DNA of 64,000 nucleotides, taken from assembly GCA_965198225.1 (NCBI GenBank), contig CBDAOY010000006.1, positions 800,001 to 864,000 of the forward strand, given 5' to 3'. The stretch comes from Terriglobia bacterium (lineage in GTDB: Bacteria; Acidobacteriota; Terriglobia; 20CM-2-55-15). Each line of letters begins with the position of its first letter. The first letter of the stretch is position 1. The translations under genes and the position numbers were made by a program. This document shows positions 36,771 through 43,703 of this stretch, in pieces. The notes below the pieces were generated by a model, which saw only the letters and a list, made by a program, of their open reading frames with translations, was not told the origin of the DNA and did not search any database.

Positions 36771-38089
36771 CAGTAGTGTCCGACACGTTTCAGAATAGAT
36801 TCAATTGGTTAGCGTTAGAGTGTCGATTTGAGATGAGCCCGGATTCGGTAAGCAGCTGAAAAAGAGGCACATTCTCAAATGGTGTGACACTCAAGATCTG
36901 TAACATTGAGTGCAACGACAAAGGCAAATTCAGTTCTTTACGCACGATAGCCACCAGCACGTAAACGCTCACGGCGACCCAGACCTGAGTTTTGACGGCG
37001 TTCTCGGAAGTGCCGAAGAAACGCTTGATGCGCAGGTGCTGTTTGATCCATTTGAAGAACAGCTCCACCTGCCAGCGCAGGCGATACAACTCGCAGATGG
37101 TCCGGGCTGGGAGCGTCATGTGATTGGTCAAGAAAACCAGTCGCCGACCCTCGGGATCGCGATAACGAATGCGACGCAACCGTTCGGGGTAGCCGCGGCG
37201 GGAGCGAAATACGGTCAGTTCGATAGTCTGATCGCAGATGAGGCCCGTGTGTCGGTCGACGGGTTGGGAGTAGATGCGCTTGAACGCGAAGTCGGATCGA
37301 GCACGGGTGACGAAGAAGCTCCCGGCTTGATTGAAGGTGTAGAGGCGATCGAAGTCGAGATAGCCGCGGTCCATCACGTAGAAAGCACCGGCTTCGGCGA
37401 TGAGCAGGTCGAGAACGTTGACGTCGTGCAGCCTGCCTTCGGAGATGTGGATGAAGCTGGGGATACCGCCACGCAGGTCGAGCAGCGTATGAAGCTTCAC
37501 CGCGGCTTCGGTCTTTCGAAAGTGCGCCCAAGGGAACAGCGACAAGCACAGACTGATCATCGTGGAGTCGAGCGCGTAGACGGTTTCGTCCAGGTCGATC
37601 CCGAGCGGCTCGTGGGCATACAAGCGGCGTGCGATGCGGATCAGCGCCTGAGCGAACTCTCCGTAGATGCGCCAGTCGCGAGACTCGTTGGCATCGGCCA
37701 ATGCACTGCGGCTGACCTTCCCGTGCAACCCCAGGTGGTAGAGCTTGGCGGGTTGGGCTCGCAAGCAGGCTTGAATGTCGCGCAGGCTCTCCCGATAGGT
37801 CAGCTGAGCGAAGGCCATGCATAGGAACTGGTCCAGGCAACTGAATGTGCGGACGTTGAAATTGCCGCGGTACTTGGTCACCAGACGACGGAACGTATAC
37901 CACGGCGCGAACTCCATGACTTGTGCGAAGACCAGCTTGCCAGCGTGCATCGGTGCCTCCCAGAAACCTCTGGAAAGGCTGCCGCGAAGGCCGCACAGAA
38001 ATCAAATCGTTAACACCTTGACAAGCGCGCTACATCGCGTCAGTTCTAACTTTAGGACCGGGAGGTCCTAAATCTGTCGGACACTACTG
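36771..38089 (-). mobile_element. Complete IS4-family insertion sequence (1319 bp) with 15-bp TIRs and 9-bp target duplication
   Basis: CAGTAGTGTCCGACA (36771-36785) / TGTCGGACACTACTG (38075-38089). Direct repeat GTCGGTAGT at 36762-36770 and 38090-38098. Confidence 0.93.
36790..37950 (-). CDS. IS4-family DDE transposase (DUF4372-type N-terminus)
   Basis: AFAQLTYRESLRDI, ALDST, KLH, MDRGY, YRLRWQVELFFKWIKQ (YREK-like) motifs. Confidence 0.93.
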   Translation of the reverse strand: MHAGKLVFAQVMEFAPWYTFRRLVTKYRGNFNVRTFSCLDQFLCMAFAQLTYRESLRDIQACLRAQPAKLYHLGLHGKVSRSALADANESRDWRIYGEFAQALIRIARRLYAHEPLGIDLDETVYALDSTMISLCLSLFPWAHFRKTEAAVKLHTLLDLRGGIPSFIHISEGRLHDVNVLDLLIAEAGAFYVMDRGYLDFDRLYTFNQAGSFFVTRARSDFAFKRIYSQPVDRHTGLICDQTIELTVFRSRRGYPERLRRIRYRDPEGRRLVFLTNHMTLPARTICELYRLRWQVELFFKWIKQHLRIKRFFGTSENAVKTQVWVAVSVYVLVAIVRKELNLPLSLHSMLQILSVTPFENVPLFQLLTESGLISNRHSNANQLNLF

Positions 38090-38134: not shown

Positions 38135-38384
38135 GCTAGCTGGAGCTTTCACTTCCGGGCTTCCAGCCATTAGGTCACCCCAATAACTGCCGGATATAAC
38201 TACGGCGCCATACTGGAAATTGCGCCGGCGGGACTTGAACCCGCTAGCACAGCAGCTAGCCTCGCTGCGCCACTTCCTCGCTGTCTACGCTTCTCTCCCG
38301 CCGGTCACCCGGCGACAGGCAAGACTCGCTACCGGCCTGCCCTCTACGGCTTTAACCGGACTGGACTTTCACCGGTTATTTCCC
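38135..38384 (-). mobile_element. Two joined 5'-end (domain I) remnants of group II introns on the minus strand
   Basis: Minus strand reads GGTGAAAGTCC...GGTAGCGAGTCTTGC...GGTGAC...GAAGCGTAGACAGCG, similar to D1 of intron 2 at 39835-39885. It is followed by GCGCAGCGAGGCTAGC...GCGGGTTCAAGTCCCGCCGGC from 38270. No D5 or ORF is associated. Confidence 0.6.
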
Positions 38385-39050
38385 CTTGTCATCTGTAGCG
38401 CTGTCGAATAGTGTGAAACACGTCGATTCGTTGTCGAATGCAATTGTTTTCAAGCCTTTAAGCCTTGGGGAAACTCTCAAGTCGGCGGCGGCGATCGGTA
38501 TGGCGTCATGCCGCTGGGAAACAATCCAGAAAGCCTCCACGAGACCTCCGACTCTACCTTTGTGCCGAAATGGATCAGAGGGGCCTGCTGTCAGTGAAGA
38601 TCACTAAAACACCCATGAGTGAGCGCCATCCGAGAGGGACAGCGTACAGACGGACAAGAGGGCTCATTTCAACCGCGCAGACTGTTACAATCCGCTTCAC
38701 GCCTGAAGACACAGTGATTCCGTCGATCGAGATCCAGCGGGTACTTCCTGCAATGGGGTCGATTCGCGACACGGCGGCCTCTCTATTCGGCTTTACGGCT
38801 GATTTCAATGTGCGCCGTGAGAAGGCGCCAATCCTCAGCGGGTGCGAATCCCGCCCGGCAACTGTCGCTCCAGTCGGTAGCAATCGGAGCGGATGGTGGA
38901 GGTAACAACATCGTCTGAAGCACTCCGATGACAAAGGGCCGCCTCGGGCGGCTCAGCGACCACACAGGCCACAACGCGAGTAAACGCCGAGCAGGCCTCG
39001 AAACGCACAATGCGGAAGCCGACCCGCCGTTGAAACGGGGAAGGCGTCAC

Positions 39051-39710
39051 GAGCGGAAGGGGACCCCGCAAGGGTCTCCGATCTCGCCGCTGTTCAGCAA
39101 CATCTACATGCGGCGCTTCATTCTGGGCTGGAAGGTGCTGGGCTACGCCCGGCACTTCAAGGCGGAAATCGTCAACTACGCGGATGACTTCGCGGTTCTC
39201 GGTCGCGCGCCGGCAGCGGTGATGCTAGCGGCGGTCGAAGCCCTGATAAAACGTCTGAAGTTGGCGATGAACGTTGAGAAGACCCGCTGCTGCCGGGTGC
39301 CGGAGGAATCGATGACGTTCCTCGGCTACCGGATCGGTTGCAACTACCGGCCGGGTACGGGTGCCGCCTACATAGGCACACATCCGAGCCGGGAAAGCGT
39401 CCAGAGCATCTGCCGTCGTGTGAGCGAGTTGACCGCGCCGCGCCACGTGCTCCTGCCGTCGGGAGTCGTAGTGGGACGCCTCAACCGGTTGCTGATCGGT
39501 TGGGCGAACTATTTCATCCTGGGACAGGTCCGCCCGGCCTACAAGGCGATTGATCAACACGCGACCCGGCGGCTGCGCCAGTGGCTCTGCCGTAAGCACA
39601 AGGTGCGGACCGGGAAACACGTGCGCTTCCCGTCCGAGCGGCTCTGGTCCGATTACGGGCTCACGCATCTTGCGCCGCGTACGGCGAGCTTTCCGTGGGC
39701 GAAGGCATGA
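39051..39710 (+). pseudogene. C-terminal half of the intron 1 reverse transcriptase/maturase (RT4 to domain X)
   Basis: GTPQGSPISPLFSNIY, YADDF, EKT, FLGY, LNRLLIGWANYF. The N-terminal RT domains are missing and the fragment is fused directly to domain I RNA sequence. Confidence 0.88.
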
Positions 39711-40162
39711 TCTCGTCCGAGAGCCGGATGCGGGAAATCCGCATGTCCGGTTCGATGAGCGTTGCGCCTTGCAAGCGCATGAGATCCAGTCGCCTGAGAT
39801 GGCGGCCGTGGCAGAGCCTAGCCGGCAGCCACGTACCGAGTCTTGCGTGGTGGTCGGTGACGGACACTGCGAAGCGTAGACAGGGAGGGAGTAGGCCGGA
39901 ACACCAGTGAACGGAAAGATAGCCCCGAAATCGAACGTGGTTGAAGTAGCCGACCCTGTCGCTCTAGGGGGAAGGCGGAATCGCAGGGCACGCAATGGCA
40001 AGTGCCCTGGGGTGCTTCCGGGGTTCGTACCGCCGGCATGCAACCAAGGATTTCATGGGAACAAGGGAGATCCGTCAGGTTCAAGCGGAGCTTGTAGGGT
40101 TGGACAAGCCAACAACGCGAGGAAGACCCGAAGGCCTGTCGGAAGTCAGACTGGCTGATAGT

Positions 40163-41975
40163 GCGTGCCTGGCAGCACGCGTTTCCGGCGGGTTAAAGTC
40201 CCGCTCGGCCCGAGGCCACGGGTCGATATCCAACAAGTGGGGGTAATGCCTCACTGGCCGAAGTGTAGACAGGTAGTGCAGATGCCTAAACGGGCACGAA
40301 GGCGAAAGCCGGATACGGCCAAGGCAAAGCTGGAGCCAGCTACGGAAACTTTGGAGGGCAGGGCGCCCACCGCGAGGTGGGGTCTGAAGGGCATGAGGAG
40401 AACCACCGGGTCGTAATCGACGGGAGCCATCCCGAGGATGAACCGGTCGGCCAAAGATGGGGAATGGTCGAGCCCGCACTATTGGGGCGAAGGCGCATTG
40501 GTTCCACCCCATCGCACCAAGGTGTGTGCGGGCGACACGGTGGAGAAGAGACGCGAGTGACCCAGGGAGGCCTGGTATCGTCCGAGCGGAAGGTAAGGTC
40601 GAGATGATGTGGCACCCGCAGACGAAAGGGCGGGCAACCGAGAAGACAAACATCGACCTAGAGCCCTGCGCGGTAGGTGCGGATATAAGCGAGAGCGAAA
40701 TTCCGGCCGACGCGGTGTCAGGAATCGGATCGGGGAATAGTGCGTGCCTGGCAGCACGCGTTTCCGGCGGGTTAAAGTCCCGCTCGGCCCGAGGCCACGG
40801 GTCGATATCCAACAAGTGGGGGTAATGCCTCACTGGCCGAAGTGTAGACAGGTAGTGCAGATGCCTAAACGGGCACGAAGGCGAAAGCCGGATACGGCCA
40901 AGGCAAAGCTGGAGCCAGCTACGGAAACTTTGGAGGGCAGGGCGCCCACCGCGAGGTGGGGTCTGAAGGGCATGAGGAGAACCACCGGGTCGTAATCGAC
41001 GGGAGCCATCCCGAGGATGAACCGGTCGGCCAAAGATGGGGAATGGTCGAGCCCGCACTATTGGGGCGAAGGCGCATTGGTTCCACCCCATCGCACCAAG
41101 GTGTGTGCGGGCGACACGGTGGAGAAGAGACGCGAGTGACCCAGGGAGGCCTGGTATCGTCCGAGCGGAAGGTAAGGTCGAGATGATGTGGCACCCGCAG
41201 ACGAAAGGGCGGGCAACCGAGAAGACAAACATCGACCTAGAGCCCTGCGCGGTAGGTGCGGATATAAGCGAGAGCGAAATTCCGGCCGACGCGGTGTCAG
41301 GAATCGGATCGGGGAATAGTACTCAGGAACGAGACGGCAAACATAAGGTCTCGGATCGTTGCTTCGAGCAGCGGCGCTGGCGGGTCCAAAAGGCCCGTTG
41401 GAGGGGGAAGTCCCCGTACTCAGTCGTGAATGTGCGAGCGATGGGAAACGCGGAGATATCGTGGAATTGGATAGTTCCCTTAGCGAAAGACCCAAACGCG
41501 GTACGAACGAAGCCGCCACCTGCCGCCACACAGCGAATTCCGAACGAGGAGCAACTGAGGAAAGCGGCTTGCGGGAAAACCGCACGAGCCGTTTGATTGA
41601 GCGGACGGTGGAGCGGACGGTGGGATCGGCCCGACCACTTTCGACTCTACACTCAGGAACGAGACGGCAAACATAAGGTCTCGGATCGTTGCTTCGAGCA
41701 GCGGCGCTGGCGGGTCCAAAAGGCCCGTTGGAGGGGGAAGTCCCCGTACTCAGTCGTGAATGTGCGAGCGATGGGAAACGCGGAGATATCGTGAACTTGG
41801 ATAGTTCCCTTAGCGAAAGACCCAAACGCGGTACGAACGAAGCCGCCACCTGCCGCCACACAGCGAATTCCGAACGAGGAGCAACTGAGGAAAGCGGCTT
41901 GCGGGAAAACCGCACGAGCCGTTTGATTGAGCGGACGGTGGAAGGGCCGATCGGCCCGACCACTTTCGACTCTAC
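40163..41975 (+). ncRNA. ORF-less group II intron copy 3A (904 nt: 40163-40741 + 41651-41975), interrupted by copy 3B
   Basis: Starts GCGTGCCTGGCAGCACGC. D5 AAGCGGCTTGCGGGAAAACCGCACGAGCCGTTT. Ends CGACTCTAC. No RT ORF. EBS1 ACTATT at 40478-40483. Confidence 0.85.
40742..41650 (+). ncRNA. ORF-less group II intron copy 3B (909 nt, uninterrupted, innermost)
   Basis: 5' 579 nt appear identical to 3A. Contains the empty site GGGGAATAGT/ACTCAGG (41311-41327). D5 at about 41562-41594. Ends GACTCTAC. Confidence 0.88.
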
Positions 41976-42101
41976 ACTCCGAGGTCGGGAGAGCCGATCA
42001 CATGGGGAAGCGGCCAGCAGAAGTGGACTCGTTCTTGGGAAACATGAGCTCCATGCAACGGGAGGATACGGTCCTCTATGCAACGAGAGGAACAACCAGT
42101 C

Positions 42102-43424
42102 ATGGAAACGAAACTGGAACGAATAGCGGCGAAAGCTCGGAGTGAGCCAAAGCTCCGGTTCACGTCACTGGCGCATCATGTCACCCGAGAGCGTGTGTGG
42201 AAGAACCTGTGTCAAGTGCCCCGCAACACGGCTCCCGGATGTGATGGTCAGAGGGTACCGGAGGCGAAGGAGGAATTCGGAGTCTGGGTGGAGCCAATGC
42301 TCCAGTCTGTTCACCAGAAGGGATATCGCGCTCCGCCGATTCGGCGGGTGTATATCCCCAAGCCCGGCAAGCAGGAGAAACGTCCCCTGGGCGTGCCCTG
42401 TGTTCAAGATCGGGCCCTTCAGCGCAGCGTGGCCGAGGTATTGGTCGCCATCTACGAGCAGGACTTCTTGCCCTGTTCCTTTGGTGGCCGGCCTGGGCTG
42501 GGCGCCCACAATGCACTGGCAACCCTCCATGAGGTGATTTCCGGATGCAAGGTGAGTTGGGTGTTGGAGGCGGACTTGAAGAACTTTTTCGGGAGTTTAG
42601 ACCATGGATGGCTACTCCGCTTTGTGGAGCATCGAGTCGGAGATCCGCGGATCATCAGTCTGATACGACGATGGTTAAAGGCGGGCGTTTTCGAAGACGG
42701 GGAATTGCATTCGAACGAAGAGGGAACCCCGCAAGGTGGGTCGATCAGCGTTCTGCTGAGCAATCTGTACCTGCATTATGTGCTTGACCTGTGGTTTGAC
42801 CGGATGGTCCGGCCACGCCTGAAGGGTGAAGCGTATCTGGTGCGGTACATCGACGACTTTGTCGTGTGTTTCCAATATCGGGACGATGCGCTTCGTTTCC
42901 AGAACGTTCTGCGCAAGCGACTGGGAAAGTTTGGACTGGTTCCGGAGCCGACCAAGACGAAGCTCGTCGAATTCGGCCGCTATGCCCAGCGCGATGTCGT
43001 CCGGCGCGGGAGAAAACGTCCAGAGACGATCTATTTTCTGGGCATGACCCTGTACTGTACGCGTAATCGCAAAGGCAATTTTAGAGTGGGACTGCGAACA
43101 GAGAAGTCTCGACTTCGACGCAGTCTGGCTCATCTACGCGGCGTGATGAGGCGAATGCGTCACTTGCCGGTCCGGGAGCAAGTGCACAATCTGAACCGAG
43201 TCTTGCGCGGGCACTACGCCTACTATGGCATTGCCGGGAACCTCCGGGCTCTGCAGCACGTCGCTCGGGCCGTGGAACGTTACTGGCGCCAAATGCTCAG
43301 CAGTCGTAGTCGTGCAGGCTTCGTCCGGTGGGAAGTATTCAACCGGATTCAGCTGCACTTTCCGTTACAGCGTCCCAAGTTGGCTCTCCGCTATCGGGAG
43401 TTCCAGTCTCTCGCTGTGCTGTAA
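42102..43424 (+). CDS. ltrA: Group II intron reverse transcriptase/maturase, intact, no endonuclease domain, YIDD active site
   Basis: FTSLAHH, RRVYIPK...RPLGVP, ADLKNFF, GTPQGG, VRYIDDF, FLG, LNRVLRGHYAYY. Followed directly by D5/D6. GAGG precedes ATG 42102. Confidence 0.93.
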   Translation: METKLERIAAKARSEPKLRFTSLAHHVTRERVWKNLCQVPRNTAPGCDGQRVPEAKEEFGVWVEPMLQSVHQKGYRAPPIRRVYIPKPGKQEKRPLGVPCVQDRALQRSVAEVLVAIYEQDFLPCSFGGRPGLGAHNALATLHEVISGCKVSWVLEADLKNFFGSLDHGWLLRFVEHRVGDPRIISLIRRWLKAGVFEDGELHSNEEGTPQGGSISVLLSNLYLHYVLDLWFDRMVRPRLKGEAYLVRYIDDFVVCFQYRDDALRFQNVLRKRLGKFGLVPEPTKTKLVEFGRYAQRDVVRRGRKRPETIYFLGMTLYCTRNRKGNFRVGLRTEKSRLRRSLAHLRGVMRRMRHLPVREQVHNLNRVLRGHYAYYGIAGNLRALQHVARAVERYWRQMLSSRSRAGFVRWEVFNRIQLHFPLQRPKLALRYREFQSLAVL

Positions 43425-43620
43425 ATCCAATTCTGAAGAGCGCAGTGCGGGAAATCCGCACGCTGCGTTCTGTGGGAGCCGGAGGCGGGCAACTGCCTCC
43501 GGCCACCCGGTGCGACTGGAAACGAAGCCACGGCGAGGAGTGAGGCACCGGAATCGGCGAAAGCCACCGGCAACAGCTACCCCCTTTGCCTACCGCCACC
43601 GCGCCAGTCGTCGACTCTAC

Positions 43621-43703
43621 ACGAAGTAACGAAGGCAACGAAGATCGGAAAAGATATTGCTATCTTCGTCTCGCTTCGTGCCCTTCGTTACTTCGTGTTA
43701 AAA
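43621..43703. repeat. Imperfect palindrome of ACGAAG-containing 8-9-mer units (insertion target of intron 1)
   Basis: ACGAAGTAACGAAGG...CCTTCGTTACTTCGT inverted arms. Confidence 0.75.

Follow-up and report, generated by a model that had tools for sequence, protein, structure and literature searches.

The window analysed here is the whole 64,000-nt stretch, positions 800001–864000 of contig C6 of a 6.4-Mb Terriglobia genome (G000). It contains, at 38.8–43.6 kb on the + strand, a nest of group II introns. BLAST of this region against the whole of G000 resolves three elements, I1, I2 and I3, each with many copies in the genome. I2 encodes a reverse transcriptase (RT) and lies inside I1. Our analysis of I2 and its relatives makes it very probable that members of this lineage home naturally into other group II introns, at the point reached after the 3-nt linker that follows domain V (D5) and the first 5 nt of domain VI (D6). 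A strictly defined D5 hairpin precedes 50 of 73 I2-family 5ʹ junctions, as against 4 of 5000 random 60-mers of G000. An earlier note on this DNA, written from its letters alone, had proposed that I2 targets the D5/D6 junction of other introns, and this is strongly supported for the family as a whole.

Direct repeats of 579 nt and 330 nt indicate an element nested inside its own copy. Rfam finds two D5/D6 units (RF00029 at 39719–39780, 40.3 bits, and at 43436–43511, 47.1 bits) and two domain-I cores (RF02003 at 38836–38979 and RF02005 at 39797–40031). An uninterrupted copy of I1 on the minus strand of the same contig (C6:5959–7961) reads D5-GATGAGCG|GCGACTGG; the two halves of I1 are contiguous in that copy and are separated by 3750 nt in the window. 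From this comparison of filled and empty sites, I2 is therefore exactly 39762–43511, in an unambiguous register. Its ends, 5ʹ TTGCG and 3ʹ GGT, are identical at six 5ʹ and ten 3ʹ junctions of I2 in the genome. The earlier note had given the span 39754..43520; its placement of I2 after GATGAGCG stands, its limits give way to those set by the intact I1 copy, and the strings it quoted are all found where it put them. A second empty I1 copy lies at C5:743295–744856. Uninterrupted outer forms are known for I2 in I1, I3 in I2 and I3 in I3, which makes each of these nestings a twintron. The parts of the nest are as follows.

38810..39761, + strand: 5ʹ segment of I1; starts GTGCG, ends D5-GAT-GAGCG (BLAST against the intact copy, RF02003)
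39721..39753, + strand: D5 hairpin of I1, 5-nt loop (RF00029, strict hairpin scan, fold); GATGAGCG follows directly 3ʹ at 39754–39761
39754–39756, + strand: D5/D6 linker of I1, GAT (fold)
39757..39761, + strand: intron-binding site 1 (IBS1) for I2, GAGCG, the first 5 nt of the D6 5ʹ strand of I1 (filled and empty sites, fold of intact I1, covariation with exon-binding site 1, EBS1)
39762..43511, + strand: I2, RT-encoding, 3750 nt with nested I3 copies (empty-site comparison; ~1938-nt homologues with the same ends); its own sequence is 39762–40162 plus 41976–43511, 1937 nt
39797..40031, + strand: domain I core of I2, holding the EBS1 hairpin (RF02005, 137.2 bits, structure line)
39960..39964, + strand: EBS1 of I2, CGCTC, in the 9-nt loop of hairpin 39950–39977 (Rfam structure, exon covariation)
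40163..40741, + strand: outer I3, 5ʹ part; begins GCGTG, the GT before it belonging to I2 (empty-site I2 homologues, BLAST map)
40742..41650, + strand: inner I3, complete, without an open reading frame (ORF), 909 nt, inserted in the outer I3 at AATAGT|ACTC (14 uninterrupted I3 copies; contig joint)
41651..41975, + strand: outer I3, 3ʹ part; D5 at 41892–41924, GATTGAGCG at 41925–41933, this site being empty
42102..43424, + strand: RT/maturase ORF of I2, 440 aa (448 aa from the ATG at 42078) (Pfam, TIGR04416, ORF list)
43438..43511, + strand: D5 (43438–43470), TGT linker and D6 of I2 (RF00029, fold)
43512..43620, + strand: 3ʹ segment of I1, the remainder of its long D6, with the bulged A at 43614 and the 3ʹ end CGACTCTAC; a 100% match to positions 1895–2003 of intact I1

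The RT ORF of I1 is internally deleted in the window, where I1 positions ~246–1178 are absent. The ORF that is left (38928–39710) encodes the C-terminal half of RVT_1 and a GIIM domain (Pfam).

The insertion point of I2 and its hosts

Where in its host does I2 sit? Minimum-free-energy folds make GAGCG the first 5 nt of the D6 5ʹ strand, paired with CG-A-CTC, in which A43614 is the bulged adenosine, and I2 interrupts the host D6 two base pairs above the branch site. In the folds of intact I1 and I3 a linker of 3 or 4 nt follows D5, after which GAGCG opens D6 and pairs just before the shared 3ʹ TAC. I1 and I3 have GAGCG in common because their common 3ʹ end, CGACTCTAC, pairs with it. We rejected the assignment of GAGCG to the D5/D6 linker, since the folds give the 3-nt linker GAT and place GAGCG already within D6. 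The site falls after the fifth nucleotide of D6 in folds of I1, of two ORF-less hosts and of one self-nested host.

For the family survey, relatives of the I2 RT were taken from contigs of one genome per species, and the best 80 of 510 confirmed relatives (73–100% identity) were used. They come from Terriglobia and other Acidobacteriota, Gamma-, Alpha- and Betaproteobacteria, Desulfobacterota-type metagenome-assembled genomes (MAGs) and Vicinamibacterales. Intron ends were located by nhmmer, with 399 nt from the start and 112 nt from the end of I2 as models; a typical member is ~1938 nt long, that is, I2 minus its nested I3 copies. The 73 junctions comprise 67 at these loci and 6 in G000, each flanked by 55 nt or more. 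A D5 hairpin counted as strict if its 9-bp outer stem had no more than one mismatch, its 3ʹ bulge was 2 nt, its inner stem was perfect, position 4 was C and it ended within 14 nt of the junction. Its distance from the junction in the 50 strict cases is 8 nt in 44, 9 nt in five and 5 nt in one. Under relaxed rules, 50 of 63 distinct flanks pass, compared with 1161 of 20000 controls. The earlier note had named the 5ʹ exons of homologues as the place to look for D5, and these are mostly D5 plus 8 nt and not mainly unrelated sites.

The host introns are not one family: among them are 49 different D5 strings, and the 8 nt at the junction occur in 20 different forms. Rfam was run on 16 loci in all; a host domain I lies upstream at 7 of the 11 D5 or D5-like loci tested, and at none of the five ectopic (non-intron) loci. 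The hosts at L038, L019, L023, L030, L004 and L049 are of RF02005 type, and that at L015 is of RF02003 (I1) type. At L038, L019, L023 and L015 domain I lies just ~600–750 nt before the insertion, and there is no room for an RT ORF. Family members also sit in D6 of other members (L011, L050 and L052), and on one Vicinamibacterales chromosome (L047–L054) the same intron is present at one non-intron site and in three or more host contexts. These sequences show that the I2 family uses several unrelated host intron lineages, its own family included. Many ORF-less hosts have a D5 with GAAC...GGGTC or GGATC (L018, L021, L023, L025, L030, L036, L038, L055, L065 and L066), in which AAC replaces the usual catalytic triad AGC and an A opposite G replaces the usual G-U pair.

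In G000, I2 5ʹ parts that are identical over 400 of 400 nt sit in at least two I1 backgrounds, copies that are 99.7% versus 94–96% identical to the reference I1. Identical I2 in diverged I1 backgrounds implies recent separate insertions, by the argument made for Thermosynechococcus elongatus (PMC2882425). In another Terriglobia MAG (L001:1652–5410), there is an I2 that includes the two nested I3 copies and shows 99.6% identity over 3764 nt; its host intron differs from I1 and its flanks have no match in G000, and hence I2 and its nested I3 were copied as a unit to a new intron site. Plasmid pMl1 of Sinorhizobium meliloti (L091:1668–4826) has two tandem ltrA genes. The second belongs to the I2 family (RT 72% identical). 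Beyond the stop codon of the first, an annotated ltrA of 419 aa, comes a D5-like hairpin, and the intron of the second starts 8 nt after it. This is a D6 twintron in a well-studied rhizobial species.

Several observations weigh against D6 as the natural homing site. Sixteen of the 23 junctions that fail the strict test were called D5-like partly by eye (variant, mismatched or truncated), and 6 of these 16 fail the relaxed test too; the other seven of the 73 (L013, L037, L051, L056, L057 and two G000 sites) have no resemblance to D5. The sample is at least 73% identical and holds the best 80 of at least 510 relatives, so that more distant members may behave differently, and many records are MAG contigs, in which repeats can be mis-joined. 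A 5-bp IBS1 alone cannot explain the specificity, and no covarying EBS2 accounts for exon positions −6 to −16. The G000 contrast between I1-type sites (four of six filled) and I3-type sites (none of 20) is overstated, several of the I3 and some of the I1 sites being copies made by duplication or recombination. I3 is present in every I2 copy of this genome, so that I2 may no longer be active. Among assembled contigs of two RNA-library and two other runs, those from the RNA libraries bridge the I1/I2, I2/I3 and I2/I1 junctions in unspliced form only; such libraries can hold DNA.

Pairing and target recognition

The sequence GTCGCTCT at 39958–39965 includes CGCTC at 39960–39964, which the earlier note had read as EBS1. 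The Rfam structure line places GUCGCUCUA in the loop of the EBS1-bearing hairpin for the RF02005 ribozyme type, and loop bases 39960–39964 pair with exon positions −1 to −5. Exon positions −2, −3 and −4 are paired with 39961, 39962 and 39963 in 0.97, 1.0 and 0.93 of 58 non-identical sequences, compared with 0.61, 0.98 and 0.51 when exons and introns are permuted. The 43 distinct exon/EBS1 combinations have on average 4.65 of 5 pairs; in 1000 permutations the mean is 3.99 and the maximum 4.28. There are 12 IBS1 and 11 EBS1 variants across the family, with such IBS1/EBS1 combinations as GAGCG/CGCTC, GCGGG/CCCGC, GGGAG/CTCCC, GGAGG/CCTCC and GAGGG/CCCTC. The loop thus covaries with the five bases that end the 5ʹ exon, in relatives belonging to many phyla; the note was right, and CGCTC is a true EBS1.

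A column-by-column covariation scan for EBS2 against exon positions −6 to −16 yielded nothing beyond EBS1. These exon bases are conserved, so pairing to a conserved loop would escape such a scan. The conserved loop motifs GGAAC and GTGAAC do not follow host differences.

In a logo of 54 distinct target sites, C occupies −14 in 42, G −13 in 49, G −12 in 49, T −10 in 40, C −9 in 41, G −5 in 44, G −3 in 52 and G −1 in all 54; +1 is G in 58 of 66 distinct 3ʹ flanks. Positions −14 to −9 are the 3ʹ end of D5. The motif thus spans ~14 nt: CGG-W-TC, 3 nt, IBS1, then G at +1. GG-W-TC-like bases at about −13 to −9, together with a matching IBS1, are retained at the seven non-intron sites as well. Folds of the 45 nt upstream of these sites gave no shared hairpin, and ARAGORN found no tRNA at the seven loci. 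Because these sites retain the bases and IBS1 without a common hairpin, the data favour recognition by sequence of a ~14-nt target, one that happens to coincide with the part of a group II intron that is best conserved.

An alternative is that the ribonucleoprotein reads the D5 stem-loop as a DNA structure, together with the short IBS1. This is the habit of IIC introns, which insert after terminator or attC stem-loops (PMC12584367, PMC3753933) and which share with I2 an RT lacking an endonuclease domain, a short IBS1, a fixed short distance past a hairpin and no demonstrable EBS2. The constant 8-nt spacing (44 of 50 strict cases) and the lack of a covarying EBS2 fit this reading, as does the I2 RT, whose similarity to solved IIC RTs slightly exceeds that to LtrA or the T. 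elongatus RT, by small differences. EBS2-IBS2 pairing is, moreover, dispensable for in vitro splicing of IIE/IIF introns (PMC3753933). However, what the seven non-intron sites retain is sequence and not structure, and the I2 ribozyme is IIB-like (RF02005), has a 5-nt D5 loop and at ~615 nt is larger than the IIC size given in PMC3753933. The conserved bases are themselves the 3ʹ end of D5, and natural sites alone cannot separate sequence from structure. On balance we consider hairpin-directed recognition unlikely, and prefer recognition of the target by its sequence, to which the hairpin may contribute in the manner of IIC introns.

I3, reciprocity and shared descent

I3 is a second element that enters introns. 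I2 homologues without I3 read CTGATAGT-ACTCCGAGG across the site (GATAGT|ACTC), and 14 uninterrupted I3 copies read AATAGT-ACTCAGG. These two empty-site comparisons establish that I3 runs from GCGTGCC to CTCTAC and that the GT of “GTGCG” is exon. A start at the eye-catching GTGCG (40161–40167 and 40740–40746) is thereby ruled out, the true start lying 2 nt later; the two bases before GCGTGCC vary among I3 copies (GT, AT or GC). One contig (side 30) has a joint 40741>41651 that skips 909 nt with GC..AC ends. We rejected it as a splice product, since it continues into the flank of a stand-alone I3 on C7 and so represents an uninterrupted copy.

RT-encoding relatives of I3, with RNA parts ~96% identical to it, occur at C6:343788–345942, C5:501714–503867 and C6:408309–409881. 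All three have a 1.25-kb insert just before D5 with a 417-aa RT, frameshifted in the third. I3 is therefore an ORF-deleted derivative with a likely helper of its own, and need not depend on I2. I3-family copies in G000 (C6:1004374, C7:81383, C8:902508, C5:501714, C9:457314 and C6:343788; L081–L088) lie inside introns of types RF02005 (L081, L083), RF02001 (L082, L085, L088) and RF01999 (L084), and inside I3 itself. Insertion is always after ATAGT-like ends, and in no fewer than four intron types the target ATAGT|AC belongs to a stem-loop located upstream of the ORF. In the I2 family it is an internal loop, in a conserved stem-loop that lies ~110 nt before the start codon, and one pair of the enclosing helix switches between AU and GC (6:6 in 12 sequences). 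We infer that this stem-loop is domain IVa. The cluster thus appears to have been built by two intron-homing elements with different targets and not by a reciprocal pair.

The earlier note had proposed such a pair: I2 would home to GAGCG|G after the I3 D5, I3 would home to I2, and each would be the safe haven of the other. Half of this is borne out, since all six G000 copies of I2 that retain the site carry I3. The sequence basis for the other half is also as described: TGAGCG and then G are present at 41598–41604 and 41928–41934, after the I3 D5 hairpins at 41562–41594 and 41892–41924, and the IBS1 GAGCG and the +1 G are identical in I1 and I3. Furthermore, the relatives at L029 and L075 use hosts with GGTTT-GAT-GAGCG, near the I3 sequence. 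Occupancy argues the opposite. A census of D5 hairpins in G000 gave 112 hits, whose families were assigned by reading the hits. I2 fills four I1-type sites (D5 plus GATGAGCG) and leaves two empty, whereas none of the 20 I3-type sites (D5 plus GATTGAGCG, then G) is filled, the contrast being inflated by copies as noted above. None of the nine I2-type sites (TGTGGGAG, GGGAG) is filled either, as expected from the EBS1 mismatch. If the sites were independent, which they are not fully, the chance that all four insertions fall in the six I1 sites would be 15/14950 (calculated by hand). Among metagenome contigs, exact matches to the I2-in-I3 junction number 0, versus 93 stretches for I2 in I1, a comparison that is only suggestive without a denominator, the abundance of empty I3 sites there being unmeasured.

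Between D5 and GAGCG the I3 site is one base longer, and at −12, −9, −8 and −7 it does not fit the logo; its A at −8 is found in 0 of 54 distinct used sites. In addition, I3 has its own RT-encoding parent and targets three other Rfam intron types, and so is not tied to I2. Judged on these counts and sequences, reciprocity is improbable and is not supported as an explanation of this cluster, although I3 sites may be used on rare occasions. The broader suggestion of that note, that conserved ribozyme sequence is a haven that lets clusters grow, fits the data, and only the mutual use by I2 and I3 is unsupported; the safe-haven idea itself has been published for other introns (PMC2882425, PMC4424553).

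Could D5 adjacency simply be history? A single ancient insertion might have given a twintron that moved and diverged as a unit. Pairs of an I1-type host and an I2-type guest with the GATGAGCG junction are found in Acidobacteriota, Methylobacter, Mesorhizobium and Bradyrhizobium, the 93 metagenome stretches can be read in this way, and the I2 composite with nested I3 did move, or was copied, as a unit. Against this stand the 49 host D5 strings and 20 junction strings, the two Rfam domain-I types and the mixture of ORF-less and ORF-bearing forms among hosts, and an EBS1 that follows the host IBS1. Empty host sites in the same genome, identical guests in diverged hosts and the existence of non-intron sites are equally at odds with it, and we regard co-inheritance as highly improbable. 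The reading that I2 landed in I1 by accident and that the shared TGAGCG is meaningless can be dismissed: a string of 5–6 nt is common in a 6.4-Mb genome, but the D5 adjacency of the family and a covariation beyond all 1000 permutations are not so explained.

Classification, mechanism and known systems

I2 has the ribozyme and the protein of a group II intron. Its D5/D6 unit scores 47.1 bits against a gathering score of 40, and its fold has D5, a 3-nt linker and D6 with an unpaired CA, A43505 being 7 nt from the 3ʹ end. The domain I–IV scaffold matches RF02005 over the full model length (137.2 bits, gathering score 49), with an extra 17-nt stem-loop region. The RT ORF is intact, with RVT_1 (Pfam, 4.8e-29) and maturase domains (GIIM, 7.7e-05, 23.0 bits, exactly the cut-off of 23) and no endonuclease domain; TIGR04416 scores 317.2 bits (cut-off 300). 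The ends, UUGCG...GGU, depart from the boundary consensus 5ʹ GUGYG...AY 3ʹ. In all 72 5ʹ junctions at family loci the intron opens with TTGCG or TTGTG, and its 3ʹ end is GGT in nearly every case; a 5ʹ U is also known in TeI4h (PMC2882425). These ends are a variant, and we keep I2 among group II introns on its ribozyme and RT. The I2 lineage is a widespread group of small IIB-like introns with an endonuclease-less RT and 5ʹ UUGYG and 3ʹ GGU ends.

The 5-nt D5 loop, GAAAU, and the ribozyme size of ~615 nt without the ORF suggest class E/F, on these two features alone. A IIC ribozyme type was rejected, RF02005 being the best match over the full length and ~615 nt comparing with 412 nt for a IIC intron (PMC3753933). 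A PDB sequence search and NCBIfam returned only “group II intron RT” for the I2 RT, with no class label, and its plasmid relatives are annotated just as ltrA, likewise without one. IIE/IIF introns have a IIB-like ribozyme of 450–700 nt without the ORF (Nagy et al. 2013, PMC3753933) and resemble I2 in this small ribozyme, in the 5-nt D5 loop, in the endonuclease-less RT and in a long structured D6. The excerpted description of that class includes neither insertion into other introns nor UUGYG...GGU ends.

How would such an element move and splice? By analogy with endonuclease-less introns (PMC4424553), the excised I2 RNA-RT particle would reverse-splice into its DNA target and cDNA synthesis would be primed at the replication fork. 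I2 would be transcribed solely within the transcript of its host intron. With D6 interrupted opposite the branch adenosine, the host D6 could form only after excision of I2, and splicing would be sequential. In this scheme I2 would enter D6 of I1 and leave the look-alike GAGCG site in I3 unused, while I3 would enter the ATAGT|AC internal loop upstream of the ORF in I2 and I3. We put forward, tentatively and as somewhat short of an even chance, a cross-phylum “intron of introns” lineage that homes to the D5-D6 junction, whose EBS1 evolves to copy the branch-site strand of the host D6, and which invades its own family. Since four of the seven hosts detected by Rfam are too short for an RT ORF and the RT of the window host is truncated, the guest may supply the sole RT in many such twintrons, with two ribozymes sharing one protein.

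A literature search, with supplements and the Zimmerly intron database outside it, found no D6-homing lineage across hosts and phyla, and a prior description is quite possible. The 2003 paper by Dai and Zimmerly on the nested introns of Methanosarcina acetivorans reportedly, by its title, concerns homing into related intron ORFs, not the D5/D6 ribozyme junction. Intron homing into conserved intron sites, nests and decay by recombination are on record for T. elongatus (PMC2882425) and Methanosarcina acetivorans (PMC4424553). In T. elongatus, ORF-less TeI3 lies inside TeI4 introns (Mohr et al. 2010, PMC2882425). As here, identical inner introns in diverged outer ones were taken to be insertions both recent and independent, a related RT mobilises an ORF-less derivative, and TeI4h has the 5ʹ U of the I2 family. 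Those twintrons are closest to I3 in I2, with insertion upstream of the ORF, and differ in that the site is in domain IV between two start codons and that one genome and one intron family are involved (PMC2882425). M. acetivorans has the same nesting and recombinant derivatives as are seen in the window and at other G000 loci, in an archaeal, single-genome case (PMC4424553). The I2 lineage differs from the T. elongatus introns in its D6 target beside D5, in breaking the host ribozyme until it is removed, and in having several hosts and many phyla.

Some internal introns of Euglena twintrons lie in domains V/VI. In these plastid group II/III twintrons the inner intron is spliced before the outer one folds, and ribozyme domains are interrupted, as with I2; they differ in being organellar, degenerate and mostly ORF-less introns in protein genes (PMC4424553). 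The excerpted description of them does not mention an RT-encoding lineage with a covarying EBS1 aimed at D6.

Intron-into-intron homing is known from the single genomes of T. elongatus and M. acetivorans; here it would be an inherited habit that characterises an entire lineage, with members in Acidobacteriota, in several classes of Pseudomonadota (rhizobial plasmids among them) and in Desulfobacterota-type MAGs. What is targeted is part of the ribozyme core instead of a tolerant loop, which would make this a natural system in which one ribozyme depends on prior excision of another, and would offer an explanation of how intron nests grow without cost to the cell. The natural set of EBS1/IBS1 variants and the conserved distal motif could be tested directly in Escherichia coli mobility assays. 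There is a consequence for annotation as well. Twintrons or multi-copy cases make up 21 of 513 database introns (PMC4028801), and twintrons are excluded or missed by two annotation pipelines (PMC4028801, PMC8919778). Where a pipeline assumes GUGYG...AY ends and a single intron per locus, these elements will be missed or their boundaries misplaced.

Other observations concern the neighbourhood of the nest and its copies. Sponge metatranscriptome libraries (X3 and X10) contain near-identical contigs of the nest, 38700–43700, including the I2 ORF and junctions in unspliced form, and loose contig ends at 39761 continue into D6 of related I1-type introns without I2. Upstream of the nest are a 386-aa ORF (36790–37950, minus strand), DDE transposase-like by eye, and an RF02005-type partial intron fragment (38230–38369, minus strand, 59.3 bits); the whole 36.8–43.7 kb stretch is a mobile-element graveyard.

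Elsewhere in G000, the I2 at C4:95723–98839 has a 5ʹ flank that is neither I1 nor intron and an I1 3ʹ flank, and that at C5:810698–815631 has the reverse. By their flanks these look like reciprocal recombination products of an ectopic and an I1-borne I2 copy, that is, a genome rearrangement mediated by intron copies. Two elements of ~1.5 kb lie at fixed positions in other copies of I1, on the opposite strand, one at I1 position 442 (C5:608365–609821 and C5:744856–746312) and the other at position 200 (C5:746555–748065 and C4:145762–147272). Both encode a 352–381-aa transposase, IS110-like by eye, and would be further mobile elements that use I1 as a target. A fourth RT intron is present within C4:148399–150749.

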